Position numbers and translations under genes: made by a program | Shown here: positions 9,306-35,386 of the stretch, piece by piece | Position numbering within the stretch: the stretch's first letter is position 1 | How the letters are laid out: each line of letters begins with the position of its first letter | DNA from: Phycisphaerae bacterium | GTDB taxonomy: Bacteria; Planctomycetota; Phycisphaerae; JAAYCJ01 | DNA: 64,000 bases | Assembly: GCA_041658725.1 (NCBI GenBank) | Contig: JBAZZQ010000003.1 | Coordinates: 22,903 to 86,902 of the forward strand | Reading direction: 5' to 3' | The notes under the pieces: generated by a model | The model's input: only the letters and a program-made list of their open reading frames with translations | What the model was told of the DNA's origin: nothing | The model's database searches: none

Positions 9306-9330
9306 CCTCCGGGTTGTGTTGACCCGGAGG
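9306..9330 (+). promoter_or_regulatory. Stem-loop CCTCCGGGT-N7-ACCCGGAGG in the leader of gene 9366
   Basis: Perfect 9-bp inverted repeat. It lies 36 nt upstream of the ATG and is not followed by a U-tract, so it is a leader structure or operator rather than a canonical terminator. Confidence 0.3.
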
Positions 9331-9365
9331 GGTTGAAACAAAATGTGTAACTAGGGAGTACGAAA

Positions 9366-12300: not shown

Positions 12301-13463
12301 GCCCGCAGACCCAGACGGTCTTCTGGCCGGCCGCGCAATTCAACATCACCGTGAACAATTCCGGGGCTGGAACCCTGGATTGGACTGCCGCAGTCATCTC
12401 CGGAGCGAGCTGGCTTTCCATTGGCACGACCAGCGGGACCGACCACGGGACAATTACCGTCAGCGCCGATGAAAACTCCACCGCTGCCGCCCGAACGGGA
12501 ATCATCCGTGTAACGTCCGGTGCCGTATCCAAAGACGTGACGGTGGTGCAATCCACCATGCCGCCGACTTCGAACATCACTTCGCCGCTCCAGGACAATA
12601 CGTCCACCGCTCCGGCTACTATTGCCATCACGGATAATGCCACCGATAGCAACGGCACGATCAACAAGGTGGAATTCTACAACAACGACGTCTTGCTGGG
12701 CACAGATAACAACAGTTCCGGCGGATGGACCTACAGTTGGGCGAACGTGGCGGCCAGCGGCGACCATGGAATCAGTCTGACCGCGAAAGCCTACGATAAC
12801 GACAACATGAGTACGACGTCCAACCCAGTCACCATTACCGTCACTGACAGTGCCCTCAAGTGTTATTGGAAGCTCGACAATACGAGTGGCACTACGGCGG
12901 TCGACTCATCGGGCATCGGCAACGTCGGCACCACGTACAACAGCCCAAGTTGGGTGACGGGAAAGATAAGCAACTGCCTATCTTTTGATGGTTCCAACGA
13001 TTACGTCCAGAAAACCAGTGCTTCGAGTCTGCCGGCCGCCAACGCCAACCAGACCGAGTGTTTCTGGTTCTATGTCTCAAGTAACCCTTCAGCCAAGAAG
13101 ACCGCTCTGGCTGTTACGGGCAGTTCCTCAGCCGTCAATATCGGGTTTGTGAGTAGTAGCGGGATGAAGTTCGGAGTGTGGAAGTATAACAACACCGTCC
13201 TGGTCAAGGCCGCCATGCCCGCGGCCGGGGCCTGGCATCATGCTGCCTACACAAAGAGCGGCAGCACCAACACCTTGTACATCGACGGTTCTCCGGTAAA
13301 TACCTCCACCACGAGCACCAATACGGCGTCGGCGACGACAATCAACGCCGGACGTACTGCCAGCGGCGCGTACTATTGGCCTGGTAAATTGGATGAAATC
13401 CGCATCTATAACCGAGCTTTGTCGGCGACGGAAATTGCCGCCTTGGCGCAAGGCAAACAATAG
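9366..13463 (+). CDS. Secreted multidomain glycoside hydrolase: signal peptide, 2x LamG-like modules, GH-A clan (GH39/GH30-like) TIM-barrel domain, BACON-like domain, Ig-like domain, C-terminal Laminin_G_3 domain
   Basis: - 1365 aa with a signal peptide (MKKVVLCLIGLGMALTFPTLAAA).
- Two ~220-aa repeats carrying WHHAAMSWGD, KRLWFDG and YDELHVYD (LamG-like).
- GH-A clan acid/base motif YWEIGNEPS and nucleophile motif LAITEWNPDY.
- BACON-like segment SWLSIGTTSGTDHGTITVSADENSTAAARTGIIRV...VTVVQ.
- C-terminal LamG signature LDEIRIYNRALSATEI. Confidence 0.85.
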   Translation: MKKVVLCLIGLGMALTFPTLAAATPPALIFGADYNYSGIVKANESITGNTNVRALGSGSEDSFGFSFQIADGKWGGGMEVLPEQYSSRVRYDVPDNFSTSNGMVEVWFKMTGTNNSDTYLIDLGGGNYLKWEVSSLDLVAVLAGATVRYHVGSIDDNAWHHAAMSWGDGGHWKTGKRLWFDGYERAWNTGHTTALSGVTHIGVGAPSYGGVTAIIYDELHVYDVGYNDLVYFAPNQGEPGYYGEVEPLATPYANPPALIFGADYNYSGVINANMSINGSTLLRPDGSGEEDSFGDLTSEATGYGKWGGGLRMGPSNWNSRARYDVPDNFSTANGMAEVWFKMMGNNDSDTNLIDLGGGNFLRWEASSGDLVAVLAGATLRYNVGQIDNDTWHHAAMSWGDGGHWKTGKRLWFDGYERAWNTGHTTALSGISHVGVGAISYGGNTVIMFDELHVYDSGYNDLVYWSPNQGEPGYYAEVGPLIPLTYSINTAAGTPFSPGVRGHHPECIGVHRGEYTTGIPKLLPVSDGTFLRGLAAGLKAETYDWRNRFEYGVPANGLGQPTIEFLRYQRDRNSSMINTVNTRGLTRQVGQTCEYYDTRLSTLVSLATDWVRYTNHIVQTYRLGDTISDPRDAGIVNSLSWKTQGDTSDQFEPLLFPQEAAVPKVTYWEIGNEPSMNLSATNSYTLTPAQFHDRYAAIAAAMKAEDPTIKVGPSDLPGGDYINAVVSDLSLPVDVVYYHTVFRGNLGTTNVDDIISLLNGIYWDERSVMDPIVAIIAASGRDPATIPLAITEWNPDYAYMDAPSIGRMAQALGCMQAVFSFARMGIFDANYLKWPADTRDGMEYPVYKAWQVLNDHMGDTLVDFWNEACFQLYTTKDNATGQVAVWGLNFSNTTDKTMQISLDQLPPGATNVTWKHLGALSGLSTLLTGNISAYDAGGPQVNVDWKTWDLSGISTSSLTFHVPRASMCVLLVGSPSLKVSPQTQTVFWPAAQFNITVNNSGAGTLDWTAAVISGASWLSIGTTSGTDHGTITVSADENSTAAARTGIIRVTSGAVSKDVTVVQSTMPPTSNITSPLQDNTSTAPATIAITDNATDSNGTINKVEFYNNDVLLGTDNNSSGGWTYSWANVAASGDHGISLTAKAYDNDNMSTTSNPVTITVTDSALKCYWKLDNTSGTTAVDSSGIGNVGTTYNSPSWVTGKISNCLSFDGSNDYVQKTSASSLPAANANQTECFWFYVSSNPSAKKTALAVTGSSSAVNIGFVSSSGMKFGVWKYNNTVLVKAAMPAAGAWHHAAYTKSGSTNTLYIDGSPVNTSTTSTNTASATTINAGRTASGAYYWPGKLDEIRIYNRALSATEIAALAQGKQ

Positions 13464-13967: not shown

Positions 13968-15008
13968 ATGAAGAAAAGTTCTTTCGCGACAATTCGGGAC
14001 GTAGCGGCGGCGGCTGGGGTGTCCATGACCACAGTGTCAGACATCATTACGGGGCGATCTGATCGGTTTAAGGAAGAGACATTAATGCGGGTCCGCAAGA
14101 CGGCGGAAAAGCTCAGTTACCGGCCCCATCTGGGGGCTTCGGCGATGCGAAGCCAACGGTTCAATACCATCGGTCTGATCCTTTCGCAGTCACCGTTTTA
14201 CGAGGCCAAATTAGTTGAGGGCGTGGATGAAGTCGCTCATGCCCGGGAACTCGGGCTCATGCTGGTTCACATCGGCCCTGCGGAAGAGGATTTGCCGAGC
14301 TTGGTTACCCACAACCAGGTGGATGGGTTGATCGTGGACTGGACCTCTCCGAAGAAGATCGGAGTGGCAATTGAGAACTATCGTATTCCCGCCGTCTGGG
14401 TCAACAACGATCAGCATGCCCCGGAGAACTGCATCTGGCCGGACGACGAGGCGGGCGGGCGAATGGCCACGGAACATCTGATTGCTCTTGGTCATCGGCG
14501 AATCGCATTTTTGCGAGTTCCCCAGGCCATGCACCCTAGTCAGGAATTTCGATTGAAGGGTTATTGCCAAGCGTTGACCGAGGCGGGTTTGGAGCCCCGG
14601 GTGATCGACTGCGAGTGCTTGGATTTTCCCTTGGATATACCCACGGATCCGAATTGCTTTAAGAACCGGTTCTCACACCCGGAGATATGGGCGGACATGG
14701 AAACGGGATCCTGGCCCACGGCGTTTGTCTGTTACAGCACCTTGACCGCCCTGGAGCTATACGCCGCCTGCCAGCGTAAGGGCGTCGAGGTCCAGAAAGC
14801 CTTCGCCGTGGTGTCCTGTGACGAGCTTTTGGAGCGGGTGGAAATCGCGTATCCCGCCATCACCACCGTGGTGGTGGACCATGCCCTGATGGGGCGTCTG
14901 GCCGTGGACATGCTCTGCGAACGGATCGAAAACAATGGCAAGGCCGTTCCCAGCAAGATACTGCCGCTCCGATTAAATGTCCGGGAGTCCAGTTTCAAAA
15001 TGCCCTAA
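13968..15008 (+). CDS. LacI-family transcriptional regulator
   Basis: 346 aa. N-terminal HTH reads ATIRDVAAAAGVSMTTVSDII, followed by a periplasmic-binding-protein-like sugar-binding fold. Confidence 0.9.
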   Translation: MKKSSFATIRDVAAAAGVSMTTVSDIITGRSDRFKEETLMRVRKTAEKLSYRPHLGASAMRSQRFNTIGLILSQSPFYEAKLVEGVDEVAHARELGLMLVHIGPAEEDLPSLVTHNQVDGLIVDWTSPKKIGVAIENYRIPAVWVNNDQHAPENCIWPDDEAGGRMATEHLIALGHRRIAFLRVPQAMHPSQEFRLKGYCQALTEAGLEPRVIDCECLDFPLDIPTDPNCFKNRFSHPEIWADMETGSWPTAFVCYSTLTALELYAACQRKGVEVQKAFAVVSCDELLERVEIAYPAITTVVVDHALMGRLAVDMLCERIENNGKAVPSKILPLRLNVRESSFKMP

Positions 15009-20398: not shown

Positions 20399-23300
20399 AT
20401 GCCGACAAAAACGATGAATTGGATCGTGTTGTTTTTTTTTCTTTCGCTTCTCGCTCGGTCTGTCGCGGCAGATGAGCCAAGCCCCGGGCCGTATCACCTG
20501 ATCTTTGGCATCGGCCTGCATGACGAAGGGGCCTTCACCCCCGTCGGTCAATCCGACGGCATGACGTTCATTGTCGAGCTGCGGTGCGATAACGAAACAA
20601 AAGAGATCTTTCGCCGTCACCGGCCCAAGGAGAACCATGCCCCGGAATATTTCTCGGCGGATATGTCACCGTGGGCGGGACGAACGATCCGGCTGCGGTT
20701 CATCGCCGATCCGGGGCCGAACCACAATGCCGCCTACGATTGGGGCGTTTGGATCGAACCGCGAATCGTCCGCGGGGTTGTACCCCCCAAGTGGTGGGAA
20801 CGGAAAAACCTGTTTCAAAGCGACAAACTTCGGGTCATCTTCGATGCCGTCGACTCTTATGAAAAGGCAACCCTCGGAGTTGGAGATAAAATCGGCTTGC
20901 GGGCAGGAGCTCAATTTAATCCCTGTTCCGTTCCGATCGGTTGGGGACTTCTTGGGTTTGCGGAAAAGTATAGCGGAAAGAAAAAAGTCCGCGGTATCCT
21001 GCACGAACCGGCATGGGATAACGAAGCCACCCTGAGTTGGGCACAATACACGTTGGTCCTGAACCTGGCGGGAACGCTCGTGAGTTCCGACACCGGCTCG
21101 AACACTAAGCGGATGGACACCTCGCAAGCGGCCCGAGCCGTTCGCCGACTTGACGAGGCCGCAACTCTGGGAAAAGAGTTGGATGCCCTGATCGCCCGGG
21201 GCCGGCGCCAGGGGTTGCAGATGCGGATGCCTCGGGTGACCGCGGCTGTGCTCAAGGTCTTTGTTCCGCGGCTCCGTGAGGATTTGGACGGGATTGCCTG
21301 GTACTGCGGACCGAATTTCCCCGGTTGGTTTTACAATAAAGGTACTCCGCCGGGATACGTCACGGTCAAAGTCAAAATGGCGGAAAAATCGCCCAAGGAC
21401 ATCTATCCCCCGGCTTTCATCGAGGAACGAAAACAGCGGGGAATCCTGCTCGCTCCCTACTTGGTGCAGACCGCGGGTCGTGCCCTGGCCGAGGCCCGCG
21501 AAATCCTCGCCCATCCCGAGGCGGATGTCAAGTTTCCCGAATATGATATGGGGAAATTGAAAATTCGCGACGGCTATTTCTATGACGGCGATCAACCCGC
21601 TCTCCTGACGGGTCTTTACACCAATCGGGACGTTAAACAAGACTATGACGCCATCTCGGAGATGGGGATATGCTTTACCCAGCCCGAGCGGTTGAACGTG
21701 TTTACCACCCTCGTTGGAGAGCAAGAAACCAGTCGAGGCTTCATCGATTCCTTTGTAGTTCGGGATACCCTGGAACCCGCTGGAAAGGCCAACATCGGTT
21801 GCCTCTTTGACCTGGGCTTACATTACCTGCCGGAGTGGGCGTATAAGAAATATCCCGACCTGACCAATCCGGGTTCGGACCACAATCACTACGCCCCTTA
21901 TCTGGTGACGTCGAAGGGCTTCCGCGACGTTGTCCGATGGTACCTGGACCAACTCGTTCCCACGACGGCCAAGTTTCCCATGACTCTGGGCTACGAGATG
22001 GGCAATCAGCCCTTCCTGAATCCCTGGTCGCCGGCGGTAATCCGTCAATTCCAAGATTGGGCGAAAATGGAATACAAGACGATCGATGCCGCCAACCAAC
22101 AATGGCTCAGTACCTTTACGTCCTTCTCCCAAGTTCAACCCGATAAGAATTTCCGGTTGATCCAGCCGGTGGGTCTGCGTTACGATTGGGTGAAATTCCA
22201 ACATCGGATCACCGGGGAATGGTACCGCTGGCTGAAGGCCGAATTGAACAAACACGATCCCCACGGCTGGGTGGAAGTCCAGCCGGCGGGCAACTTTTTT
22301 GATCCGCAGAAGTTTCCCGGCCACGATGCCCATCGCGTCGCCATCGACGAAGTTGACCTCTACCGAAATATTACGGATATCAGCGGGATCGACGCCTGCA
22401 CGTGGTTCTGGGGCCGGTTGGTCTACGACCAGGGCGGACAGTTTTACGACCTGCTGCGTTCGATCGCCCCGGCCAAGCCAATCGTTAATTTTGAGTACGG
22501 CCTGAGTACCTACAATTCCAAGACAATCTGGGACCCGGCCTACATCCGTGGGTCGTTGTGGTACAGTTATCTCCACGGAATGGGTGGCTGCACGACATGG
22601 ATATGGACCCTCGCGGAAGAACGCGATGAAACCCAAACCAATACCCTGGCCCGGTGGCCTGACAGGATCGAAACCTTCGGACGAACGGCCTTGGAACTCC
22701 GCCGCCACGCCCGGGCGATTGCGGCCTTCGGACGACCCTCGTCCGAGGTGGCCATGCTGTATCCGGCCCCCGCCCGGTGGTTCGCGGGAACAGGGCCGAG
22801 CGACTATTTTGAACAAGCCCGTGCCATGTGGAACGCCGCGTCCTTCCTCGATACTTCATTTGATTTTATCACCGATGAACAAATTACCGAAGGCCGATTG
22901 ACCCGCTATAAAATCCTGCTCATTCCATCGTCACCATACATGCAGGACGGCAGTTATCGGCATATTCAGAAATTTGTCCATCAGGGCGGAATTCTTCTCA
23001 CCAACGGCGGGTTGGGCTTCGACGCTTATGGCCATTCGCGTGAGACGGAGGATTTCCTGGGTTCCGCCCGGAATGCGGACCACTATGCCGTGGCCAGGGA
23101 AGCCGGAAAGAAATTCGGGCGCGGGATAGTGTATAACGTCCTTCCTACCTCGGCCGGAGCGTATGGTCTCCTGTTCCGGAGAATTTATGACCAAGCGGGG
23201 ATATCACGCCCGGTCCGTGTGAAAATGCAAACTGGATTGCCCAATTGGACAATCGAGGCCCGAACGGTAAAGGAAACGGATCGGGCTAACCAATATCTTT

Positions 23301-23470
23301 TTTATTGCTTCAACCTTGGAAACCGGGCAGAACAGATATTGATAACACTCCAGAAGGGTATGGTCATAGCGGGAAGGGACTTGATTTCGAACCGAAAATT
23401 TGAACCTGTGATTACGTTGAATCCTCTGGAAATTTGCATGTGGCGGTTTGTGAAATCGGATACAAAATGA
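20399..23470 (+). CDS. Secreted GH42-like glycoside hydrolase with ~330-aa N-terminal extension
   Basis: - 1023 aa with a signal peptide.
- TLGYEMGNQPF...FQDWAKMEYKTIDAANQQW resembles the GH42 acid/base region (xNEYG...W.kkYgtldaLN.aW).
- YKILLIPSSPYMQDGSYRHIQKFVHQGGILLT resembles the GH42 middle (trimerisation, GATase-like) domain. Confidence 0.5.
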   Translation: MPTKTMNWIVLFFFLSLLARSVAADEPSPGPYHLIFGIGLHDEGAFTPVGQSDGMTFIVELRCDNETKEIFRRHRPKENHAPEYFSADMSPWAGRTIRLRFIADPGPNHNAAYDWGVWIEPRIVRGVVPPKWWERKNLFQSDKLRVIFDAVDSYEKATLGVGDKIGLRAGAQFNPCSVPIGWGLLGFAEKYSGKKKVRGILHEPAWDNEATLSWAQYTLVLNLAGTLVSSDTGSNTKRMDTSQAARAVRRLDEAATLGKELDALIARGRRQGLQMRMPRVTAAVLKVFVPRLREDLDGIAWYCGPNFPGWFYNKGTPPGYVTVKVKMAEKSPKDIYPPAFIEERKQRGILLAPYLVQTAGRALAEAREILAHPEADVKFPEYDMGKLKIRDGYFYDGDQPALLTGLYTNRDVKQDYDAISEMGICFTQPERLNVFTTLVGEQETSRGFIDSFVVRDTLEPAGKANIGCLFDLGLHYLPEWAYKKYPDLTNPGSDHNHYAPYLVTSKGFRDVVRWYLDQLVPTTAKFPMTLGYEMGNQPFLNPWSPAVIRQFQDWAKMEYKTIDAANQQWLSTFTSFSQVQPDKNFRLIQPVGLRYDWVKFQHRITGEWYRWLKAELNKHDPHGWVEVQPAGNFFDPQKFPGHDAHRVAIDEVDLYRNITDISGIDACTWFWGRLVYDQGGQFYDLLRSIAPAKPIVNFEYGLSTYNSKTIWDPAYIRGSLWYSYLHGMGGCTTWIWTLAEERDETQTNTLARWPDRIETFGRTALELRRHARAIAAFGRPSSEVAMLYPAPARWFAGTGPSDYFEQARAMWNAASFLDTSFDFITDEQITEGRLTRYKILLIPSSPYMQDGSYRHIQKFVHQGGILLTNGGLGFDAYGHSRETEDFLGSARNADHYAVAREAGKKFGRGIVYNVLPTSAGAYGLLFRRIYDQAGISRPVRVKMQTGLPNWTIEARTVKETDRANQYLFYCFNLGNRAEQILITLQKGMVIAGRDLISNRKFEPVITLNPLEICMWRFVKSDTK

Positions 23471-23626
23471 CCACCATCAACGGGGGTTAGAGAAAATTTG
23501 AAACCTCTCCATAAGAGTCGGTGAGTATAATGAAGGTAGCAGGCGATAAGCAGTCGGTAATTTTGTTAGGATCGGCAATTGAATCGGCAGAGTGAAGTTC
23601 ATACATATCCCTTTGGTAAACCGGCA

Positions 23627-26593
23627 ATGCGACCCAGACGTTATGGGAAGGTCACCGGTTGGATAGGTCTTGTTTTTCTTATTGTCGGGAGCCCAAATCA
23701 ATTCGGTGTCCAGGCGGAACCGGTAACCCTCCATTTATGGAACATTCCTCCCAAAAGTTCAACCCAGCCCCTGGAGATCGCCCGGCGGCGGACGTTTGAC
23801 GCTTTCTGCCGACTACATCCCGAGATCAAGGTCCAAGCCATGGTCCCCATGAAGATCGAGGGACCGGCCGCGGAAGGCAATGAATTTCTGGCCGTGGCCG
23901 GGGGCGTGGCCCCGGATGTCTTTTACCTCTTTGGCCGAAAGATCGGAGATTATTACAGTCAAGGCTTTCTGGAACCCCTGGATTCCTATCTGGCCGGTTA
24001 CGTCAAGGCGACGGGAAGGCCTTACGTCGGGATCAATGCTCCCTCCCCGGTCTGGGAACTTTGTCCGATCAACCATCGGATTTATTCTGTACCTTACCTG
24101 TACTACTCCATGGCCCTGATGGCTCGAAAGGACCTGTTTGCTCGAGCGGGAGTGCCGTTAAAACCCTTGGCAGACTGGGAGGAACTTTATACGACGGCCC
24201 GGCGGCTGACCTGGCTGCCGGACAAAGAGCCGGACGCCAAGCCGGGGGATAAAGGCGTGTACGGCCTGCATTTTCGGACGGGGGTCTATGCGGGTTGGCA
24301 CATGCTCCAGTACATCTGGAGTTCTGGGAGCGAGGTCGTCCGGTCCTATTTTCCTCGACCGGAGGGAACGCTTGTCGAGGTCCCTCCCCCGCCCGTTGAC
24401 TATCGGCAGTGGGGGATCGCGATCAGTGATGCCAATCGCTATTACCCAAAACTCCTGGAACTGGAGGCCCGCCTTCGGGCCCTGAAAGTGCCATCCGATT
24501 ACGGTATGACCGATCTGACGTGGCGGCTCGATGTGGATAACCCGCAAGGGGCGGCGGTCCTGGCCTTCATCCGGCGATTGGTCCATACGCCCTGGCTTCG
24601 CTGCGCCAAGGACCACCCGAACCGTGAATTCGACCTGACTCCTAAGATGCAAACGACCCGGCTCGCCCGGTGCCCGATCTGCCGGACAGAGGTGGATATT
24701 TCCCGGCCCGATGGCCGACGGCGAGTGTATACCGGCGTGGTGTCCGATGACGACGGAACCAACACCCGAAACCTCCGTATCGAGTTCGCGATGAAGATCG
24801 GGGTGCTGGAAGAGGTATCCGATCCCTTGGAGGTAACTACCCTGGCACCTCTGCCGTTTCCGAGCCGGACCCGGGACATTCCGCGGGCCGCCTTCATTGC
24901 CGGGCACTACCTGGCGATCAATGCCACTCAGAAAGACCCACGGGTCAAGGAGGCGGCCTGGAAGTACATCGACTTCATGACCGGTCCTGAGGCCCAGCGG
25001 ATTCGGGTGGAGACCTACGTCGATTACGGCCTGGCGGAATTCATCCGTCCGGCCAACCTCCAAGCTCTTGGCTATGAGGTGGAATTAAATCGAATCCCCA
25101 AGTCTCGACTGGTCCTATGGGATGAACTCGAACGCCACGCCCGCGTCGAACCTTACTGCCGGGGCTTTCAGCACGTGATGACCCGGGAACTAGGAATGAC
25201 CATTGATGGAATCCTCGGGGACAAACCTGATTCCCTTGGCGTGTTTCATCGCGATCCCCAGATCCTGCTGGCCGAGACTTGCCGCCGGGTCAATACGATG
25301 ATTCTGGGTGAAATGCCGAAAGAGGTTCTGCACCGGCGGGAAAGGATCGGCTGGCTGATCGGGGTCGTCGTCCTCGGCTTGCTGGGTTTGGGAACCTATG
25401 GCACGATCCGCTTCGCCGTCCGGATGCATCAGAAGGCCGCCGATCTGGAGGGCCTGGGAGTCCGGGGCAAGACCGGACGGCGGACGTTGGCTATCCTCAT
25501 CTTTCTGACCCCTGCGATTGGAACCATTCTCTTGTGGGGATACTATCCCTTGATCCGGGGGACGATCATGGCCTTTCAGGACTTCAAGATCCTCGGCGGC
25601 TCCCGGTTTGTCGGTCTCCGCAACTTCGTCGAAACCGCTAGCAGTCCGGAATTCTGGCGATACATGCTCCAGACGTTTGAGTTTCTCGGATTGAACTTGG
25701 CCATGGGATTCTTTGCCCCCATCGCTCTGGCCATCTTTCTGACCGAGGTGCCCCGGGGAAAAATCCTCTTTCGCACGATCTATTATCTCCCGGCGGTCAC
25801 CACGGGAATCGTGACATTGTTCCTGTGGAAACAATTGCTCTACGATCCGGCGCCTACGGGATTGATTAACGGCATTATCCTGTCTTTTAACGATCTTTCC
25901 CCTATATGGATGATCTTCCTAAAGGGATTACTCGTCGTTTTCCTGGTCTGCCTGATTCTGGGAAATGTGCGGTTGGGACTTAGTCGCGATGTTTCACTTT
26001 GGGGACGAATCATTCCGATGGTTATCGCCCTGGTGGGAACGATTTATTTTTTTTGGCGAGTGATTGAAATCTTGAGGGGTGGATCGCCGATGGCCCTGGC
26101 CCGGTGGTTTGCCGCTTCCTGGGCCTTCCGGCCGCAGGAGTTCCTGAAGGACCCGCACTTGGCCATGATTTGGATCATCATCCCGATGATCTGGGCGGGG
26201 GTGGGTCCCGGGTGCTTGATCTATCTGGCGGCCCTGAAGGGTATTCCCGAGGAGCAGTACGAGGCGGCCGATTTGGACGGCGCGGGAATTTGGTCGAAGA
26301 TCACGAACGTGGTCTTTCCGAATCTCTCCGCCCTGATCTTGATCAATTTTGTGGGGGCGGTCATCGGGGCCATGCAATCATCGTCCAATATTTTTGTGAT
26401 GACCGGGGGCGGGCCGGAGGATGTGACCATGACCGTGGGGTTATCGGTCTGGTTCAACGCTTACATGTTCTTGAACTTCGGCTTGGCCACCGCCCAGGCC
26501 TGGGTTCTTGGAGCCTTGCTCATCGGGTTTACCTTATACCAACTGCGTCTGCTTAACAGGATGCAATTTCGCACCACAAGTGCCAGGAGATAA
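23627..26593 (+). CDS. Fused ABC sugar transporter: family-1 solute-binding protein domain fused to MalF/UgpA-type permease
   Basis: An N-terminal TM anchor and a ~540-aa SBP-like domain are followed by a six-TM permease carrying the EAA loop YEAADLDGAGIWSKITNVVFP and YYLPAVTTGIVTLFLWKQL. 1004 aa from the ORF start at 23579; the in-frame ATG at 23627 (MRPRR...) is an equally plausible start. Confidence 0.8.
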   Translation: MRPRRYGKVTGWIGLVFLIVGSPNQFGVQAEPVTLHLWNIPPKSSTQPLEIARRRTFDAFCRLHPEIKVQAMVPMKIEGPAAEGNEFLAVAGGVAPDVFYLFGRKIGDYYSQGFLEPLDSYLAGYVKATGRPYVGINAPSPVWELCPINHRIYSVPYLYYSMALMARKDLFARAGVPLKPLADWEELYTTARRLTWLPDKEPDAKPGDKGVYGLHFRTGVYAGWHMLQYIWSSGSEVVRSYFPRPEGTLVEVPPPPVDYRQWGIAISDANRYYPKLLELEARLRALKVPSDYGMTDLTWRLDVDNPQGAAVLAFIRRLVHTPWLRCAKDHPNREFDLTPKMQTTRLARCPICRTEVDISRPDGRRRVYTGVVSDDDGTNTRNLRIEFAMKIGVLEEVSDPLEVTTLAPLPFPSRTRDIPRAAFIAGHYLAINATQKDPRVKEAAWKYIDFMTGPEAQRIRVETYVDYGLAEFIRPANLQALGYEVELNRIPKSRLVLWDELERHARVEPYCRGFQHVMTRELGMTIDGILGDKPDSLGVFHRDPQILLAETCRRVNTMILGEMPKEVLHRRERIGWLIGVVVLGLLGLGTYGTIRFAVRMHQKAADLEGLGVRGKTGRRTLAILIFLTPAIGTILLWGYYPLIRGTIMAFQDFKILGGSRFVGLRNFVETASSPEFWRYMLQTFEFLGLNLAMGFFAPIALAIFLTEVPRGKILFRTIYYLPAVTTGIVTLFLWKQLLYDPAPTGLINGIILSFNDLSPIWMIFLKGLLVVFLVCLILGNVRLGLSRDVSLWGRIIPMVIALVGTIYFFWRVIEILRGGSPMALARWFAASWAFRPQEFLKDPHLAMIWIIIPMIWAGVGPGCLIYLAALKGIPEEQYEAADLDGAGIWSKITNVVFPNLSALILINFVGAVIGAMQSSSNIFVMTGGGPEDVTMTVGLSVWFNAYMFLNFGLATAQAWVLGALLIGFTLYQLRLLNRMQFRTTSARR

Positions 26594-26597
26594 GTCC

Positions 26598-28616
26598 ATG
26601 CCGGTCATCCCCGTGGTGGGGCGAAAATCGTTCGGAATGCGAATGCTCATCGGGGCGGTATACGCCCTGCTGGCCCTGGGGGCGGTGACCATGATTTATC
26701 CCTTTGGCTTGATGCTCGCGACCGCGACTACCGGGAACGCGGACTGGGAGCAGTTTCGAATGATCCCCAGATACTGGACCGATATGGCCGAACAATTCCG
26801 AAAGTACATCATCGATAAGAACACCCTCGATGTCCTGGCTTTCGACTTTGAGCAGGAGCACTGGTTTACAGTCCGGGACGTGGAGACTCGGGATTTTCGG
26901 GACCTGATGACGCGGCCCGCAAGGGTGTGCCACGCCATCGATGCCGATTATGCCGATTTCATGGCCGGGATCGATCCTGACTTAAAGCAACTTCATTTTG
27001 TTGACTACGGGGACCTTCAATACAGCGTGCTCTCCCTTCGCCCGGAATATTTCCGGTGGTTGACAGCCAAGTACGGGCAGATCGATCGACTGAATGTCTT
27101 GTATGACGACACGGCGGAAACGTGGGAGGATTTCGGACTGCCCCGAGGCTACAATGGGGCTTGGGAGGCCCGACCCCTCTCGGCCCGGAACCGGGATTGG
27201 CGTGAGTTTGTTGTGACCCGCCCGTACGCCAAACAGAGGCTGGTTTCCTTGGATTACCTGGTCTTTGCCGCCCTGCGGGCCGATTACAACAACGTGCAGG
27301 TCCTCAATAAGACGGTAGGAACCTCTTTTAAGCGGCTTTTGGATGTTCGATGGACGGTGCTTTCGAAATTTGAATGGGGCCGGGACCTCCAACGAAAGAT
27401 TCTCCGACGGGATATTCCCTTGGCGCAGATTCGCCTGAGAACGTTGGCCCGTCCCGCGTTCGAAACGTTTGGCCATCGCCTGTTTCCCGGAAAACGGGTT
27501 GCCTTTACGCCCAACGCTCCGCAGGACGAGGAAGCCCGCGGCATCTGGATGCACTTTGTCCGGTCGGACGACTGCAAGTTAGAGTTCATTGATCCTGTGG
27601 ACCCGGCGGTTCTCTGGCGGCAATTTCTGGAAAAACGTTATGGAAACGTGCGGGATATCAACACTGCTCACGGGACCGCCTATGTTGCGGCTGATCAGGT
27701 TCGCTTGCCTTCGACTGTGATTGATTGGGGCGCTTTCCGTAACAATCGGGTGGACATCGTCAAAAAATTCCTGCTCGGCAATTTTCAGATGGTGCTGAAT
27801 TTTGTGCTCCTCCATGGGCGGGCTCTCTTAAATACGCTGATTCTTATCCTGCTGACCCTTTGCGGGACGCTGACGATAAATCCCTTGGCCGCGTATGTCC
27901 TGAGCCGGTTCCGGCTGCGGTACGCTCATCATATCCTGGTCTTTCTCCTGGCCACGATGGCCTTTCCCGCCGAGGTCATCATGATCCCCGGCTTCTTGAT
28001 GGTAAAACAGTTCCCCCTGGGAATCCTGATCCTGGGCGGGGCGGCCGGATTGATGTTTTTCCTGGTTCGGTCGCTTCTGGGGATTCGTTTGCCGCTTTTT
28101 TGGAGCGTGCTGGTCGGAGGAATTCTTTCGCTGGCCGCGGGATGGTACCTGCCCCCGGTCGCGGCCCGGATGATGGGCCGGCCGGACCTGAACGTCAGCC
28201 TGATGAACACCTTCTGGGCCTTGGTCTTACCCGGCCTCGCCAGCGGCTACTCAATCTTTTTGTTGAAAGGGTTCTTCGACTCTCTGCCCCCCGAGCTCTA
28301 CGAGGCGGCCATGCTGGACGGGGCTTCCGAGACTCGAATGTTCCTGATGATTACCCTGCCCCTGTGCAAACCGGTCCTGGCCGTCATTGCCCTTGGGGCC
28401 TTCACGGCCGCCTACGGCTCGTTTATGTTCGCCTTCCTGACCTGCCAGGACCCCAAAATGTGGACGCTGATGGTCTTTTTGTACCAGTTTCAGCAACAGT
28501 ATTCGGTACCTTTGGTGATGGCCTCGCTGGTCGTCGCCGCCGTGCCTACCCTGCTGGTCTTTATTTTTGCCCAGAATATTATCCTGCGCGGAATTGTTAT
28601 TCCAACGTTTAAATAG
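26598..28616 (+). CDS. ABC sugar permease (MalG/UgpE-type) with ~370-aa extracytoplasmic insertion after TM1
   Basis: AGGAGA RBS 7 nt before the ATG at 26598. TM1 is followed by a long soluble segment, then a canonical permease core with the EAA motif YEAAMLDGASETRMFLMITLP. Confidence 0.8.
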   Translation: MPVIPVVGRKSFGMRMLIGAVYALLALGAVTMIYPFGLMLATATTGNADWEQFRMIPRYWTDMAEQFRKYIIDKNTLDVLAFDFEQEHWFTVRDVETRDFRDLMTRPARVCHAIDADYADFMAGIDPDLKQLHFVDYGDLQYSVLSLRPEYFRWLTAKYGQIDRLNVLYDDTAETWEDFGLPRGYNGAWEARPLSARNRDWREFVVTRPYAKQRLVSLDYLVFAALRADYNNVQVLNKTVGTSFKRLLDVRWTVLSKFEWGRDLQRKILRRDIPLAQIRLRTLARPAFETFGHRLFPGKRVAFTPNAPQDEEARGIWMHFVRSDDCKLEFIDPVDPAVLWRQFLEKRYGNVRDINTAHGTAYVAADQVRLPSTVIDWGAFRNNRVDIVKKFLLGNFQMVLNFVLLHGRALLNTLILILLTLCGTLTINPLAAYVLSRFRLRYAHHILVFLLATMAFPAEVIMIPGFLMVKQFPLGILILGGAAGLMFFLVRSLLGIRLPLFWSVLVGGILSLAAGWYLPPVAARMMGRPDLNVSLMNTFWALVLPGLASGYSIFLLKGFFDSLPPELYEAAMLDGASETRMFLMITLPLCKPVLAVIALGAFTAAYGSFMFAFLTCQDPKMWTLMVFLYQFQQQYSVPLVMASLVVAAVPTLLVFIFAQNIILRGIVIPTFK

Positions 28617-28628: not shown

Positions 28629-30512
28629 ATGATAAACGCGACCGATTTTCAATTCAAAGGTGCCTGGTGGCATTCGCCGTCGATCCTGGAGCCCATGCCC
28701 GGACCGTGGGCTGGATATGAGATATTTGGCCTGGACGTGGTGGAGGCCTGGAAGCGAATCCTCGACTGGCACAAGAACCACGGCATGGACGGGATTATCA
28801 CGCAGATATCGTCGCATTTTAAGGACCGGACCCTCATGGGCTGGGGCTTTCAATACGTCCTGGACTTTGACCGCCATCCCGAGGCCCGGACGTTCGGCCT
28901 GGAATTTGTTCGACGCAATCGCCGGCGAATGGAGCAAATTCTGGAGCACGCCGATAAACTTGGGGTGAAAATGTACATCCACCATTACAATTTCATGGCC
29001 CCGAAAACCTTCGTAGAGGCCCACCCCGCGATTCACGCCAAGTGGAAGATCATCACCAACCAGGCCCTGAACGTCTACATGGCCAACAGCCGGGCGATAT
29101 GCGACCGGATCGGCACGCTTTACGGAAACCTATGCTGGCGGGAACCGGTGTACCAGGAGTTCATGAAGGATCTGTGGGATGAACTTTTTGCCAAGTTTCC
29201 CTCTCTGGCGGGCGTGCTGACCACTCCGGGCGAAAACCAGTATTGCCTGTGTCCCGATTGCACGCGGGGAGCGCGGTCGTATGAGGGAAGCGAGCTGCTG
29301 CGGGCTCGGAATGCAAACGCCAACGAATTCATCGGCCATTTCTGCGGCACGTTTCGGGAAGCCATGGCGAAAAATGGCAAGCAAGGGATATTCCGGCTTT
29401 GGGGCGTCAAACGCTCCGCCGACGAGCGGATCGACACCTCGATATACCCCCGCGATATTCCCTACATGATCAAATACCACTGGTTCGACAATGTCGATGC
29501 CGGCCCCGACCCCTTGATCGCCGATTGGATTGGCCGCGGGTTCCGGGTCTGGGTTTCGCACGATCTTTGGGGCGAGAACGCGGGGCCGGTAGCCTGGAAT
29601 CGTCCGGCGTACATCCGCCGGTTCGTAGACGAGTGCCGCCGGTTGGGTGTCGAGGGCATCGTCAGCCATCAGAACAACGACTGGGGCACTGCGGGCATTC
29701 CCGGTTGGGTCCAGGGGCTGAACCTCAAATCTTATTGCCGGTGCCTGGCCGGTTCGCCGGATTCGGATACGGATTGGATCGAGAAGGAATATCTTCGCAA
29801 ATTCGGTCCCGTCGGACCCCGTATCCAAGCCGCCATCGAGCAATACAGCGACTTCGTCTTCAATATCACCAAGCTCGTTATAATTGGAGGCGAGGGCTAT
29901 ACCTTTGGTTTACCGCACCCGCTGTATCCGGGGGTGGGTCGGATCGGTAATCGCGTGGATGACTGGGTGCGAGGCGACTTGGGTGAAATTGCTGACTACA
30001 TCGAATACGCACGAGCCCACGGCTGGCCGGACGACCTGTTTAGAACATTGTATATGGCAGATCGCGATCCCTTCCGGCGACTGGAGCGCATGCGGGACTC
30101 CGCCGCCCGAGCCGTCGAAGAGCTAGACAAGATCAAGGATGAGGCACCTTCGGAGTCGCTGGGAGAGTACGAGTGGATTACCACCAGCGCCCGCCTCTGC
30201 CTGCACCAGGCGCAGGAGTATTGGCATCTATGCCGGGTCGCCGTTTTACGCGCCGCATGGATCGGGGAAACCCGGCCCACCGTGCGAGGCGAGTTGGCAC
30301 AGCGGGTCTTGGAGGAAATGGAACAGGCCCTGGCTGCCGTGCATCGGATCCGCGAGGACCTCTTGGAGCTTCAAACCGCCTCAATGGACTTCGCCCGGAT
30401 TCTTCGTTGCCGATTTCCCATTGCCAACGATGGGGATCGCATGTTTTACCTGCCTTCGAGAGAAAACGAGTATGAGCAACTGAAACGGGAAATGAAGGGT
30501 AGCGATGTTTAA
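28629..30512 (+). CDS. hypothetical protein (putative carbohydrate-active enzyme by context)
   Basis: 627-aa ORF with an AGAGGTG RBS. No firm family motif recognised. Confidence 0.5.
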   Translation: MINATDFQFKGAWWHSPSILEPMPGPWAGYEIFGLDVVEAWKRILDWHKNHGMDGIITQISSHFKDRTLMGWGFQYVLDFDRHPEARTFGLEFVRRNRRRMEQILEHADKLGVKMYIHHYNFMAPKTFVEAHPAIHAKWKIITNQALNVYMANSRAICDRIGTLYGNLCWREPVYQEFMKDLWDELFAKFPSLAGVLTTPGENQYCLCPDCTRGARSYEGSELLRARNANANEFIGHFCGTFREAMAKNGKQGIFRLWGVKRSADERIDTSIYPRDIPYMIKYHWFDNVDAGPDPLIADWIGRGFRVWVSHDLWGENAGPVAWNRPAYIRRFVDECRRLGVEGIVSHQNNDWGTAGIPGWVQGLNLKSYCRCLAGSPDSDTDWIEKEYLRKFGPVGPRIQAAIEQYSDFVFNITKLVIIGGEGYTFGLPHPLYPGVGRIGNRVDDWVRGDLGEIADYIEYARAHGWPDDLFRTLYMADRDPFRRLERMRDSAARAVEELDKIKDEAPSESLGEYEWITTSARLCLHQAQEYWHLCRVAVLRAAWIGETRPTVRGELAQRVLEEMEQALAAVHRIREDLLELQTASMDFARILRCRFPIANDGDRMFYLPSRENEYEQLKREMKGSDV

Positions 30513-30527
30513 GCCGAAAGGAGTTCT

Positions 30528-32000
30528 ATGGATAATCTGAGGCCGCAAATGTCACGGTTGCCCCAGGTGATATGCGAAAAACATCCGGAATGGGTGACCC
30601 TTTTCAATACGGCATGGCGAATGGGTTTTGAGAACCTGGAATATCCGGCTCAGCCGGGATGGAAGCCGCAGCTCACCTGCATGCCCGGCCGTGGGTGCCT
30701 CTGGCAGTGGGATTCGTGCTTCATGACCCTCTTTGCCCGCTATTCCAATGGGCAGCTTCCTGGGATGAACAACCTCGACAACCTCTACCGGTTGCAGCGG
30801 GACGATGGCTTTATGGCCATGGCCTATGAAATGGACTCGGGCCGACCGGCCTACGGTGAGCGGATCAACCCGCCGCTCTTTGCCTGGGCCGAGTGGGAAT
30901 ACTTTCGCGTAACGGGCGATGCCTCGCGCTTTGAGTCGGTGCTGCCACGCCTCGTGCGGTATTTCGACTGGATCAAGACAAACCGTACCCGTGCCAGTGG
31001 CCTGTACTGGTTCGAGGACAGCGGATCGAGCGGGATGGACAACTCGCCGCGCAGCGGGTGGTTGTCCGAAAAGTTGAACGGCAGCGATGTCTGCTTTATT
31101 GATTTGGCCTGCCAGCAAGCCTTGAGTGCGACGTATATTCAAAAAATAGCCCAATACATGGATCAAGCAGGGTTGGTGGATCGGTTTGGCCAGGAGCATG
31201 ATGCCTTGCGCCAATTGATCAATGGCTACCACTGGAGCGAGAAGGTGGGCCTGTATTTCGATCTGTTCAGCCGCGACTGGAAGGACGCACGGCACAATTT
31301 CCTCAACCACAAGACGCTGGCATCGTTTTGGCCTCTGATCAGCAAGGTGGCCAATGAAGGGCAGGTCGGCCGGTTAATGGAGCATCTGGTGAACCCCAAT
31401 GAGTTCTGGACTCCGCATCCCTTGCCGACGCTGTCGAAGGACGATCCAAATTACGACCCACTGGGCGGCTATTGGCTGGGGGGTGTATGGGCTCCGACCA
31501 ATTACATGGTTGCCGCGGGTTTGAAGAAGTTTCAGAAGCACGACTTGGCCCGGGAGATTGCCGTTCGCCACTTAAACGCCATGGTCGAGGTGATGCGAAG
31601 CGAAACCTATGACAGCATCTGGGAGTGCTATTCTCCCGAGTACCCGCGGCCGGGAACCGACGGGTACGGGCACGGAGCGCTGGTTCGTTCAGATTTTGTG
31701 GGATGGACCGGGCTTGGACCAATCGCGATGCTGATTGAGCACATCTTCGGATTTGATTTCGACGCCAAAGAAAACCGTATTACCTGGGTGATCGGAACGG
31801 AAGGCGTCCACGGTGTGGAAAATCTGACGTTTAATCATAAAACACTTTCCTGCCTTTGCCATGGTAAAAACCCGTCGACCGGCAAGGTCCGCATTTGCGT
31901 GGAATCCTCAGGCGATATAAAACTCGTTTTGATGATCCTTGGCAAGTGCATTCAACACTCATTTTCCCTGAAGTCGGGAAAACATGATTTAGTTTTTTAA
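30528..32000 (+). CDS. (alpha/alpha)6-barrel glycoside hydrolase, GH63/GH37-like
   Basis: Motifs WQWDSCF and GGYWLGGVWAPTNYMVAAGL are typical of six-hairpin glycosidases (glucosidase I, trehalase-like). AAGGAG RBS. Confidence 0.5.
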   Translation: MDNLRPQMSRLPQVICEKHPEWVTLFNTAWRMGFENLEYPAQPGWKPQLTCMPGRGCLWQWDSCFMTLFARYSNGQLPGMNNLDNLYRLQRDDGFMAMAYEMDSGRPAYGERINPPLFAWAEWEYFRVTGDASRFESVLPRLVRYFDWIKTNRTRASGLYWFEDSGSSGMDNSPRSGWLSEKLNGSDVCFIDLACQQALSATYIQKIAQYMDQAGLVDRFGQEHDALRQLINGYHWSEKVGLYFDLFSRDWKDARHNFLNHKTLASFWPLISKVANEGQVGRLMEHLVNPNEFWTPHPLPTLSKDDPNYDPLGGYWLGGVWAPTNYMVAAGLKKFQKHDLAREIAVRHLNAMVEVMRSETYDSIWECYSPEYPRPGTDGYGHGALVRSDFVGWTGLGPIAMLIEHIFGFDFDAKENRITWVIGTEGVHGVENLTFNHKTLSCLCHGKNPSTGKVRICVESSGDIKLVLMILGKCIQHSFSLKSGKHDLVF

Positions 32001-32016: not shown

Positions 32017-33096
32017 ATGACACATGGATTAGCGTTGATTGGATGTGGGCACATGGCCAGAATCCACTGCGACCAGGTTTCCCGGCTGGATAATCTCCGC
32101 ATGGTGTGCGCGATCGATCTGGACCTAGATCGCGCCCGACAGTTTCAAACCAATTATGGATTTGAGCGGGTGACCAGTGATTACCGCACTGAACTGGCCA
32201 AGAAGGACTTCGACATCGTCCTGGTCTGTTCCTACTGGCAAAATCGGTTCGAGATTATCCGCGACTGCTTTGCGGCCGGCAAGCACGTTCTGGCGGAAAA
32301 GCCCTTGAGCCTGTATCTGGATGAAATCGATACCCTGACCACGACGGCCAAAGCCCAAGGCCTCAAGCTTCGCGTGGGATTCATGGAACGTTTCCGCCCC
32401 ATGATCCACAAGATTTCCGAGCTGCTAAAGTCGGGTGCGATCGGCAAACCCCTCGTCTACAGTTTCGTGCACCACCAGGCCCCCCGAGCCAGTGGTTTGA
32501 AGAGCGGCTGGGATTACTACAAACGGTTAATGTGCGGAGGGGTCACCCCGAACGTCGACTGCGGGATCCACAAATGCGATATGACTCGCCTGTGGGCCGG
32601 ATGCGAAGCGGTCAGTGTATTTTCCGCAGGACAAAAGCTGGCTCCCGATTCTCCTGCCAATAACTTCAGCCATTCGGTCTACACCCTGGCCGACGGTTCG
32701 ATCTTGACACTCGAAGACTGCTTTTCCAACAACACCGAACCCTTCATCCACATGACGATCCTCGGCGACCGCGGCCGAATCGAATTTGAATACGCCGGCA
32801 ACCACCTCCGTGCCACCCCCACCTCCGAAGAAGACTGCATTCGTGTCTGGCACGGCGACACCGGCTGTACGGAAACGTTTCATACCCCATTACGGCAAAA
32901 ACCGGTCGGGCCCCAGATGGAAGAATTCATCCGCGAGATCGAGGCGAACGCGGATATGGAATGGCATTACCAGAACGTCCGCCAGGCGACGGAGATGGTC
33001 ATCGGATCGGTCTTGTCCGAGCAACAGGAGAACCTTGTTCGTTTTCCCCTGTCGCCGGAGGACTTGAAGGCGGCCAAAATGTTCTTAACAAAATAG
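32017..33096 (+). CDS. Gfo/Idh/MocA family NAD(P)-dependent oxidoreductase
   Basis: N-terminal Rossmann motif LALIGCGHMARIH and the EKPLSL motif. Confidence 0.85.
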   Translation: MTHGLALIGCGHMARIHCDQVSRLDNLRMVCAIDLDLDRARQFQTNYGFERVTSDYRTELAKKDFDIVLVCSYWQNRFEIIRDCFAAGKHVLAEKPLSLYLDEIDTLTTTAKAQGLKLRVGFMERFRPMIHKISELLKSGAIGKPLVYSFVHHQAPRASGLKSGWDYYKRLMCGGVTPNVDCGIHKCDMTRLWAGCEAVSVFSAGQKLAPDSPANNFSHSVYTLADGSILTLEDCFSNNTEPFIHMTILGDRGRIEFEYAGNHLRATPTSEEDCIRVWHGDTGCTETFHTPLRQKPVGPQMEEFIREIEANADMEWHYQNVRQATEMVIGSVLSEQQENLVRFPLSPEDLKAAKMFLTK

Positions 33097-33131
33097 GAGG
33101 CCTGCGGACATTAAAAGAAGAAGGTATTTCT

Positions 33132-34079
33132 GTGAAACTTCAAAATTATGAAATCGAGTCCCTGCGGATTCGGCGTGAGTTCCGTGCGATCAAAGCAAAA
33201 TCACCTGAAAAGTTCGAGCGGCGACTGAACCTTTCCTGGAGCAATTGGGGTTTTGGTCGCGAATTTCTTGCCACATCTGCCCAGCGCTTGCAAAACAACA
33301 ATATTCGGTACGTAGAACTACAGGGAAATCATTACGGTGCTGATCTTGGATACCCAGTAAAAGATACGCTTGCAGTCTTGTCGGATCACAACCTGCAGGT
33401 GGCGGGTATATGCGGAATGTTTTCGGCGGAAACCGACTTATCAAGCCCCAGCGGCGTGGTACGCCAACGGGCAGTTGACTACTTGAAGCGCACCTTGGAG
33501 TTCGCCTCCAGTGTGAAAGCTGGATATGTCCTGGTCGTTCCCGGGGCGGTAGGACGGCCTCAACCGTACGACGAAAGTGAGCTTGAGCGTTCCGCGGAAA
33601 CTCTCCGACTGGTTGCGGATTACTTTGTGCGGCATAAAGTATTTGTCGCCGTGGAACCTATCCGATCGGCCGAGGTCAGTTTTTGCCACACCATTGCCGA
33701 TGCTCATCGGTATATCGCCGCCGTGGACCACCCCGGTGTGCAACATATCAACGCAGATGTTTACCACATGCAGACTGAGGAAAGCCATATCGGATCAGCC
33801 ATCTTGCGGGCTGGTGAGCAGTTGATCAACTTGCATCTTGCTGACTCCAACCGCGGTGCTTTGGGCGATGGCTCACTGGACATTGACACCATAATTATGG
33901 CACTTTACCTTATTGGGTATAACCGTCCTGGTTGTTATATAACACCGGAACCGTTGGGACCTGGGGGTGATCCTTATCCATCCATGCATGGCAGGCACGA
34001 TCCGGTTGCTCTGGATCGATTGGTACATCAAACGGTCCGTTACTTTCGGGAACGTGAAGAGGAGGTTCTTTTCCTGTGA
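33132..34079 (+). CDS. Sugar phosphate isomerase/epimerase (xylose isomerase-like TIM barrel)
   Basis: HLADSNRGALGDGSLDID metal-binding motif. No ATG follows the upstream stop, so the start is inferred as GTG at 33132; the longer ORF from 32961 overlaps the oxidoreductase gene. Confidence 0.7.
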   Translation: MKLQNYEIESLRIRREFRAIKAKSPEKFERRLNLSWSNWGFGREFLATSAQRLQNNNIRYVELQGNHYGADLGYPVKDTLAVLSDHNLQVAGICGMFSAETDLSSPSGVVRQRAVDYLKRTLEFASSVKAGYVLVVPGAVGRPQPYDESELERSAETLRLVADYFVRHKVFVAVEPIRSAEVSFCHTIADAHRYIAAVDHPGVQHINADVYHMQTEESHIGSAILRAGEQLINLHLADSNRGALGDGSLDIDTIIMALYLIGYNRPGCYITPEPLGPGGDPYPSMHGRHDPVALDRLVHQTVRYFREREEEVLFL

Positions 34080-34258: not shown

Positions 34259-35386
34259 GTGGCGCAGGTATTATTGGAAAAAGTGTCGAAGGTTTATCCC
34301 GGCGGCATCAAGGCCGTGCGGGACGTGGACCTGTCGATTCAGGATTCGGAATTCGTGGTTCTGGTCGGGCCTTCCGGCTGCGGCAAGACCACGACGCTGC
34401 GAATGATTGCGGGCCTGGAAGAAATCTCCGGCGGGTCGATCAAGATCGGCGATCATGTGGTCAATGACGTGCCGCCGAAGGATCGCGACATCGCGATGGT
34501 GTTTCAGAATTACGCGCTGTACCCGCACATGACGGTGTACAAGAACATGGCCTTTGGCCTCAAGCTCCGGCGAATGCCCAAGGACCAGATTCACGAGCGG
34601 GTGATGGGCGCAGCGAAGATTCTGGGCATCGATCAGCTTCTGGACCGCAAGCCCAAGGCACTCTCGGGCGGGCAGCGCCAGCGGGTGGCCGTCGGCCGGG
34701 CAATCGTGCGTCAGCCGAAGGCGTTTCTGTTCGACGAGCCCCTCAGCAACCTGGACGCCAAGATGCGGGTGGAGACGCGGGCGGAACTTAAAAAACTGCA
34801 CCGGCGACTCAAGACCACGACGGTATATGTCACCCACGATCAGGAAGAGGCGATGACGCTGGGCGACCGGGTGGTGGTGATGAAGGACGGCGAGATTCAG
34901 CAGGTGGAGCATCCGCTGAAGATTTACGACCGACCGGTGAACCGATTTGTGGCGGGCTTTTTAGGAACACCGCCGATGAACTTTTTCACCGGGATGATCC
35001 GGTACCGCAACGACGGCGTGTATTTTGAGTACGGCAGCGACTCGATCCGGCTGGCGGATCGCTGGAAGGATCGATTGAGCAAGTATAAAGATATGGAAAT
35101 GGTATTGGGCGTACGGCCCGAAAATTTCAGTCCGCAGTCCGAAGGCAAGGTGGCCGGCAGGGATAATGCGATGAAGATGAAGATTGAAGTGGTGGAACCG
35201 CTGGGCGACAAGATGGACGTGTACATGGCGATGAAGGCGCATCCGCATATCGTTTGCCGCGTGGATTCGCACGCGGGATTGAAGGAAGGTCAGGAAGTCA
35301 CCTTAGCCATCGATATTCAGCAGGTCCACGTCTTCGAGCCCGGAGAAAAAGGAATTAATGTAACACAAGAACTAAACAACATGTAA
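34259..35386 (+). CDS. ABC transporter ATP-binding protein, MalK/MsmK/UgpC-type (sugar import ATPase)
   Basis: Walker [13 protein letters not shown] signature [15 protein letters not shown], and a C-terminal MalK-like regulatory domain. GTG start with an AAGGAG RBS. Confidence 0.9.

Follow-up and report, generated by a model that had tools for sequence, protein, structure and literature searches.

Analysis of a 64,000-nucleotide stretch of DNA from a Phycisphaerae bacterium (contig JBAZZQ010000003.1, here called the window, with positions counted from its first letter) revealed a gene at 23627-26593 on the + strand in which a probable signal peptide, a solute-binding protein (SBP) domain, a linker helix and a MalF/UgpA-type permease are joined in one frame of 988 aa plus stop. 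It is highly probable that this gene encodes the MalF-like subunit of a CUT1-type (type I) ATP-binding cassette (ABC) importer of oligosaccharides, with the SBP contained within the same polypeptide. The gene that follows the fusion encodes a MalG-type permease that bears a large helical domain in the periplasm, and in every case sampled this helical domain was inherited together with the receptor fusion.

Reading frame and start of the fusion gene

The open reading frame (ORF) listing of the window gives a + strand ORF of 1004 codons at 23579-26593 with TTG as its start, and the first in-frame ATG, at 23627, yields a protein of 988 aa. ATG 23627 is favoured as the start because the N-termini of the homologues align from just after the signal peptide, and all residues of the fusion protein are numbered from it. 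A first-pass annotation of the window had placed a single 1004-aa ORF at 23627-26593; it was right that there is one frame, and its length belongs to the TTG at 23579. Its assumption of a single frame free of error at the domain junction was borne out: the junction DNA (25230-25530) contains no stop, frame break or long homopolymer, the frame is continuous, and two separate assemblies, ENA ERZ27247322 and Logan SRR8449812, contain an identical fusion ORF. The public gene call on the same contig (L001, 10001-12754) begins at an internal Met and gives a protein of 917 aa, which lacks both the signal peptide and the binding domain's first conserved strand (window 23627-23890).

Domain organization of the fusion protein

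Pfam searches found SBP_bac_1 (E 4e-20) and SBP_bac_8 (E 3e-10) in the first half of the fusion protein. Against NCBIfam the C-terminus gave weak matches to UgpA (54 bits versus a cutoff of 335), GlcT and MalF, the score for MalF proper (the PRK10999 equivalog) being 31 bits versus a cutoff of 392. A family profile made from 66 members was compared with the PDB sequences; its N-terminal part matched the trehalose/maltose-binding protein (1e-21) and many sugar SBPs, and its membrane part matched AlgM1 (9e-28), the Mycobacterium smegmatis SugABC permease 7cad_A, SugA (8ja7) and MalF. The AlphaFold2 (AF2) model of the fusion protein, built with the family alignment, had a predicted local distance difference test score (pLDDT) of 84.4 and a predicted template modelling score (pTM) of 0.82.

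The protein begins with a probable Sec signal peptide, MRPRRYGKVTGWIGLVFLIVGSPNQFGVQA (aa 1-30, 23627-23716, +), in which a basic n-region is followed by a 13-residue h-region and then by VQA|EP in keeping with the -3/-1 rule; homologues show similar AxA-type ends. The first-pass annotation had described the N-terminus as a membrane anchor. Judging from the sequence and from the N-termini of the homologues, this hydrophobic stretch is more likely a cleavable Sec signal peptide, cut after VQA.

The periplasmic substrate-binding domain of ~530 aa (aa 31-562, 23717-25312, +) was delimited by Pfam, PDB profile, AF2 (pLDDT mostly >90) and Foldseek. In the PDB profile search its first part matched 1eu8 and its last part 7c14. 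Foldseek aligned the whole domain (530-560 columns) to CUT1 oligosaccharide-binding proteins of ~390-417 aa, among them Lmo0181, T. maritima MalE3, UgpB, a beta-glycoside-binding protein and CbpB, at identities of 12-18% (target TM-score 0.70-0.76), and because the alignment spans the whole domain, we regard it as a complete two-lobed family-1 SBP fold. All of these methods thus agree with the first-pass proposal of a family-1 SBP-like domain fused to a MalF/UgpA-type permease. By PDB profile, AF2 and Foldseek the domain carries ~100-150 residues more than solved SBPs, mostly in aa ~240-392. Three cysteines, Cys326, Cys349 and Cys352 (window 24602-24685; motif RCAKDH...RCPIC), sit in an insertion of the binding domain; each is present in 23-26 of the 66 homologues, the others having mostly N, D or T there, and the three could be a clade-specific metal site or disulfide.

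Between the binding domain and the permease lies an extra transmembrane helix (aa 565-607, 25319-25447, +), recognised by hydropathy, modelled by AF2 as a single long helix and conserved in the homologues. Its hydrophobic core, IGWLIGVVVLGLLGLGTYGTI, is followed by an R/K-rich stretch, RFAVRMHQKAADLEGLGVRGKTGRR, and then by the usual CUT1 permease start, RRTLAILIFLTPA, so that the canonical pattern 'RR..L.ILIFL.PA' is found behind the linker helix. Since the permease core is N-in, the linker helix returns the chain from the periplasm to the cytoplasm.

The MalF/UgpA-type permease core (aa 616-988, 25472-26590, +), assigned from BPD_transp_1, NCBIfam and PDB matches, has six core helices, and in the AF2 model only ~25 aa separate core helices 1 and 2. 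Between core helices 4 and 5 of the six-helix core, as expected of type I permeases, it has the EAA loop EAADLDGAGIWSKITNVVFP (aa 879-898, 26261-26320, +), which was read directly from the sequence where the first-pass annotation had reported a clear one; E879, G885 and P898 are invariant in the homologues. This loop is the coupling helix that contacts the ATPase. A further hydrophobic helix pair is inserted between core helices 3 and 4 (aa 759-816, 25901-26074, +; hydropathy and AF2) and occurs in 54 of 66 homologues. The six-helix permease described earlier is therefore too small a count, as hydropathy and AF2 give the membrane part of the fusion ~9 helices: one linker, six core and two inserted.

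The partner permease

The gene of the partner, a MalG/UgpE-type permease of 672 aa (26598-28616, +), starts 4 nt past the stop of the fusion gene and has AGGAGA ahead of it. This permease is 100% identical to an NCBI protein labelled as belonging to a Phycisphaerae (Planctomycetota) MAG. Its best NCBIfam match is MalG with UgpE close behind, both at scores far below the cutoffs. The system thus has the two distinct permeases of a CUT1 importer, one MalF/UgpA-like (the F subunit) and one MalG/UgpE-like (the G subunit). The EAA loop of the G subunit lies at 28290-28364 (+). Its most conserved stretch is a periplasmic loop, CQDPKMWTLMVF (residues 616-627), which we take to occupy the position of the MalG 'scoop' loop.

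Between helices 1 and 2 the partner permease contains a periplasmic domain of ~340 aa (26727-27752, +), which AF2 models as almost entirely helical with a pLDDT of ~95. No solved structure matching the whole helical domain was found. It includes three copies of a helix-turn-helix motif, 'F..WL..KYG...LN', at residues 148-169, 218-240 and 336-358. Homologues of the partner gave short repeated matches to positions ~114-220 of the Pfam profile of glycoside hydrolase (GH) family 42, and these correspond to the three repeats seen here; a GH42 assignment of the insert was rejected, as it has no complete (beta/alpha)8 barrel above the PF02449 threshold.

The partner permease also has an inserted hydrophobic helix pair between core helices 3 and 4 (28017-28175, +; hydropathy and AF2), found in 42 of 77 homologues. 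The pairs of the two permeases are inserted at the same place, are poorly conserved in sequence and are clade-specific. A strict pairing of the two insertions was rejected, because at locus L020 the F subunit has the helix pair and the G subunit lacks it.

Distribution of the fusion and its association with the helical domain

A search of 5.8 billion proteins found 73 relatives, of which ~60 are 950-1040 aa long and contain both domains at 45-72% identity; their source labels were Phycisphaerae, Planctomycetes, Lentisphaerae, Verrucomicrobiota, Spirochaetes (a metagenome-assembled genome, MAG) and Fimbriimonadaceae. When a 321-aa segment spanning the SBP-permease junction was compared with representatives of clusters at 50% identity, it matched 113 representatives at E <= 1e-30 and 204 at E <= 1e-10, with alignments that cross the junction and complete proteins of 800-1060 aa. 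Relatives of the fusion are encoded by at least 516 stretches in the GTDB species representatives. The best 80 of these all cover residues ~33-988, and by record label ~61 belong to phyla of the Planctomycetes-Verrucomicrobia-Chlamydiae (PVC) group, 8 to Armatimonadota, 1 to Omnitrophota and 1 to Gemmatimonadaceae, the rest being unclassified. Complete sequences are among them: the genome of Kiritimatiellota bacterium B12222, and Victivallales chromosomes carrying at least 2 copies. Public databases label the members 'extracellular solute-binding protein' or 'permease', or, at the Joint Genome Institute (JGI), give a double label of permease and binding protein.

tblastn searches of the fetched loci showed that at most of the 80 genome loci a MalG-type core follows the fusion at a distance of 1.2-1.5 kb, the spacing expected if the MalG-type gene carries a long insert. 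The association was also examined in reverse. The starting point was three distant MalG homologues with the long insert (603-621 aa; BLASTP identity 35-39%), and directly upstream of all three a fusion of SBP_bac_1 and BPD_transp_1 was present (848, 746 and 811 aa). In all the cases sampled, the helical domain of the G subunit was thus co-inherited with the receptor fusion.

Between loci, the binding domain diverges faster than the permease (22-59% versus 36-67% identity), and because of this far greater divergence the ligand specificity probably differs between members of the family. Relatives adjoin GH20, GH94 and fucosidase/sulfatase genes. A GH94 phosphorylase gene lies near fusion/partner pairs at L003 18256-20562 (a Lentisphaerae MAG), L087 10332-12764 and L089 11373-13413, the latter two loci coming from an Armatimonadota MAG and an unclassified metagenome contig. 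The recurring GH94 genes hint at beta-linked disaccharides as substrates of some members.

ATPase and gene neighbourhood

A UgpC/MalK-type ABC ATPase is encoded at 34259-35386 (+). It has the C-terminal OB/TOBE domains of the MalK/UgpC/MsmX-type ATPases of CUT1 systems (Pfam ABC_tran, OB_MalK and TOBE_2) and passes the NCBIfam cutoff of the UgpC subfamily (484.5 bits versus 432). UgpC-subfamily ATPases commonly serve sugar systems. From its place in the operon, this ATPase is likely to energise the two permeases. That the operon also encodes a MalG-type partner and a UgpC/MalK-type ATPase confirms the CUT1-type setting given in the first-pass annotation, which had missed that the partner permease is equally unusual, that both permeases carry helix pairs and that the ATPase lies in the operon.

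The same-strand run of genes extends over 13968-35386. It is headed by a LacI-family regulator (13968-15008, +), followed by a PEP-CTERM protein, a BACON/dockerin protein and a DUF1559 pilin-like protein. In the middle are a GH42-like glycosidase of 1023 aa (20399-23470, +) directly upstream of the fusion gene, the fusion and partner genes, and two downstream genes (28629-32000, +) for a 627-aa protein and a GH63/MGH1-like hydrolase (490 aa). The run ends with a Gfo/Idh/MocA oxidoreductase, a sugar isomerase/epimerase-type TIM barrel and the ATPase. Upstream, the opposite strand carries GH2 and GH35 genes. Given the glycoside hydrolases and the LacI regulator in the operon, the substrate is likely a carbohydrate. 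No other SBP gene was found among the scanned ORFs of the window or in the examined neighbourhoods of the relatives.

In the 1023-aa glycosidase, the GH42 domains match only residues ~454-868, and the first ~450 residues have no family match. The 627-aa protein (28629-30512, +) had no match in Pfam, NCBIfam or the PDB sequences. The ORF of the isomerase/epimerase-like protein (32961-34079, +) overlaps the preceding oxidoreductase gene by 136 nt; since the public call on the same contig is shorter (315 aa), its true start is probably downstream. Three other ORFs of the window had no Pfam or NCBIfam match: 55234-59613 (-, 1459 aa), 101-1318 (+, 405 aa) and 3391-4473 (+, 360 aa).

Proposed transport cycle and alternative explanations

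By homology to MalFGK2 and other type I importers, a transport cycle can be proposed. The signal peptide would export the binding domain and then be cleaved, leaving the C-terminal linker helix as the sole tether. The tethered domain would capture an oligosaccharide freed in the periplasm by the glycosidases of the locus, close around it and dock on the F/G heterodimer. When the ATPase dimer binds ATP, the two EAA loops would transmit this to the membrane domains, which would open outward and receive the released sugar; the sugar would then cross the membrane domains as in MalFGK2, and ATP hydrolysis would reset the transporter. As the F and G subunits differ, one receptor per transporter is expected, at a very high local concentration. 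Tethering of the binding protein is plausible as a fit to a Planctomycete-like envelope, given that ~61 of the best 80 loci belong to PVC phyla, but members of the family are also found in Armatimonadota, Omnitrophota and a Spirochaetes MAG.

The helical domain of the G subunit, which lies at a position equivalent to that of the MalF P2 loop, probably cradles or guides the tethered receptor. In Escherichia coli, the P2 loop of MalF contacts maltose-binding protein. A receptor-cradling role is the most economical guess for the G-subunit domain because of its association with the fusion.

Some observations weigh against this picture of a tethered receptor served by its partner. In the last 180 residues of the fusion protein BPD_transp_1 scored 26.3 bits versus a gathering cutoff of 26.4, a threshold that the homologues and the family profile clearly pass. 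Cleavage of the signal peptide was judged by eye, and the docking role that the G-subunit domain probably has is deduced from its position and co-inheritance only. At the Fimbriimonadaceae loci no MalG-type partner adjoins the fusion. Locus L004 (JGI metagenome 3300035199, 7014-12967) contains two tandem MalF-type fusion paralogues with no adjoining MalG-type gene; each was called at 988 aa, the second ORF reaching 993 aa from an upstream TTG. The adjacency of fusion and partner is therefore not universal.

The tethered-receptor importer may be a member of an undescribed CUT1 subclass, found mainly in the PVC superphylum and Armatimonadota, in which the fused receptor and the G-subunit helical domain together enclose the periplasmic side of the pore in a permanent chamber that the receptor never leaves. 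We put this forward as a tentative extension that is rather doubtful at present. If true, such a chamber could be an adaptation to a large or dilute periplasm or to longer oligosaccharides, and the clade-specific helix pairs would widen or brace the membrane part.

Three other explanations were considered. The fused domain could be a permanent periplasmic scaffold or sensor that gates or regulates the transporter together with the helical domain of the G subunit, the substrate arriving through a free SBP or directly. The ~100-150 aa of insertions relative to solved SBPs would suit such a role, the high pTM of the model may mean a fixed rather than a freely swinging arrangement, and many aromatics are invariant across homologues from different glycan loci, which a conserved interface would explain at least as well as a variable sugar pocket. 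However, no free SBP gene was found in the ORFs and neighbourhoods scanned, the whole two-lobed SBP fold is kept, the divergence of the binding domain outpaces that of the permease, as in specificity domains, and the fused domains of the characterised OpuA and GlnPQ systems are true receptors. We therefore consider a scaffold or sensor unlikely.

Slightly less likely still is a tethered-receptor ABC importer with a non-sugar substrate, for instance a glycerophosphodiester or another UgpB-type ligand. In its favour, the binding domain has UgpB among its nearest structural neighbours, in NCBIfam the fused permease matches UgpA best and the partner MalG and then UgpE, and the ATPase scores above the UgpC cutoff. 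The permease scores, however, are far under their cutoffs (UgpA as given above), UgpC-subfamily ATPases are common in sugar systems, and the context both here and in relatives consists of glycoside hydrolases, GH94 phosphorylases, sulfatase/fucosidase genes and a LacI regulator.

Finally, it is barely credible that the fusion arose as an error of sequencing or assembly, or that it is a recent merger, of the pseudogene type, between two genes which the living organism keeps apart, and this explanation was rejected: apart from the internal Met start of the 917-aa public call, which does show that gene annotation here is imperfect, nothing speaks for it, whereas the frame is identical in two independent assemblies, the junction DNA is free of stop codons and homopolymer runs, >100 clusters across several phyla retain both the linker helix and the junction, and the fusion recurs among the best genome relatives, including complete long-read chromosomes and the genome of a cultured isolate.

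Relation to known systems

The tethered-receptor importer has all CUT1 defining features that were tested except the usual separate receptor. Besides the two permeases and the ATPase, its receptor is of the SBP_bac_1/maltose-binding-protein-like type (SBP_bac_1 4e-20; Foldseek TM 0.7-0.76), but it lies in the same ORF as the permease; a separate soluble protein or lipoprotein is typical of CUT1 (TC 3.A.1.1), though not strictly defining. MalEFGK2, AlgM1M2SS-AlgQ, LpqY-SugABC and UgpBAEC are alike in having MalF and MalG permeases with EAA loops, a family-1 SBP and a MalK/UgpC-type ATPase, and such CUT1 systems gave the best matches in sequence and structure. In MalEFGK2 and other CUT1 systems the receptor is free or lipid-anchored, whereas here it is part of the MalF-like chain by way of an extra helix; both permeases here also have an extra two-helix insertion. 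MalF proper has eight helices and an Ig-like P2 loop domain of ~180 aa. The fused permease lacks such a domain, and a helical one of ~340 aa is found instead on the MalG-like subunit.

No CUT1 receptor-permease fusion was described in the full-text literature searched, which did not cover the foundational review; the receptor fusions found in papers were only of the OpuA and GlnPQ types. To our knowledge, fused receptors have been catalogued only for the OTCN and PAO families. The first-pass statement that such fusions are known for osmolyte and amino-acid systems and unusual for CUT1 accordingly holds for the literature but not for the databases, where they are common. As far as can be told, the architecture has already been seen by annotation pipelines, yet it has not been described or studied in the literature. 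The family is widespread in glycan-degrading Planctomycetota, Verrucomicrobiota, Lentisphaeria and Kiritimatiellia, in which sugar uptake has been little studied, and because the fusions are labelled either as SBP or as permease, counts of transporters and receptors in these phyla may be skewed. The co-inherited helical domain of the partner, which has no solved equivalent, adds more to the interest of the system than the fusion alone.

Fusions of the mutarotase NanM to transporters (SiaF, NanZ) in Bacteroidetes, Planctomycetes and Verrucomicrobia resemble the present protein in having a leader and a periplasmic sugar-handling domain ahead of the transporter, and in NanM-NanZ fusions, which occur in the same phyla, an extra N-terminal helix keeps the topology. 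They differ in joining an enzyme to secondary transporters (SSS, MFS) and not a receptor to an ABC importer.

Work on tethered receptors rests on OpuA and GlnPQ, whose membrane subunits are identical and which have two or four competing receptors. In OpuA (OpuABC of Lactococcus lactis, OTCN family), the binding domain is linked to the membrane domain through a short linker and a hydrophobic anchoring helix, and the membrane domains are identical, which gives a complex with two receptors; osmolyte importers with fused substrate-binding domains have been reported mainly from Gram-positive bacteria. A covalent receptor with an anchoring helix is common to OpuA and the present system. The binding domain of OpuA, however, is C-terminal and of another SBP class, whereas here it is N-terminal and of the sugar type, and a homodimer with two receptors contrasts with a heterodimer that would carry one, in diderm hosts. 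GlnPQ (PAAT/PAO) has N-terminal binding domains that are exported and fused ahead of the permease, as here. It differs in that each GlnP chain of the homodimer bears a tandem of two small class-F domains, so that the complex has four receptors, and in that its substrates are amino acids. GlnPQ is not known to need an extra helix to restore its topology. The fused importers of the OTCN/PAAT type have an OpuAC or SBP_bac_3 domain on a homodimer with 2 or 4 receptors, an arrangement that is absent here. With a binding domain of another class and heterodimeric permeases, the tethered-receptor importer of the window lies outside the OpuA and GlnPQ groups, and one tethered receptor on a heterodimer, if true, would offer a cleaner natural case than either for whether a receptor must dissociate during the transport cycle.

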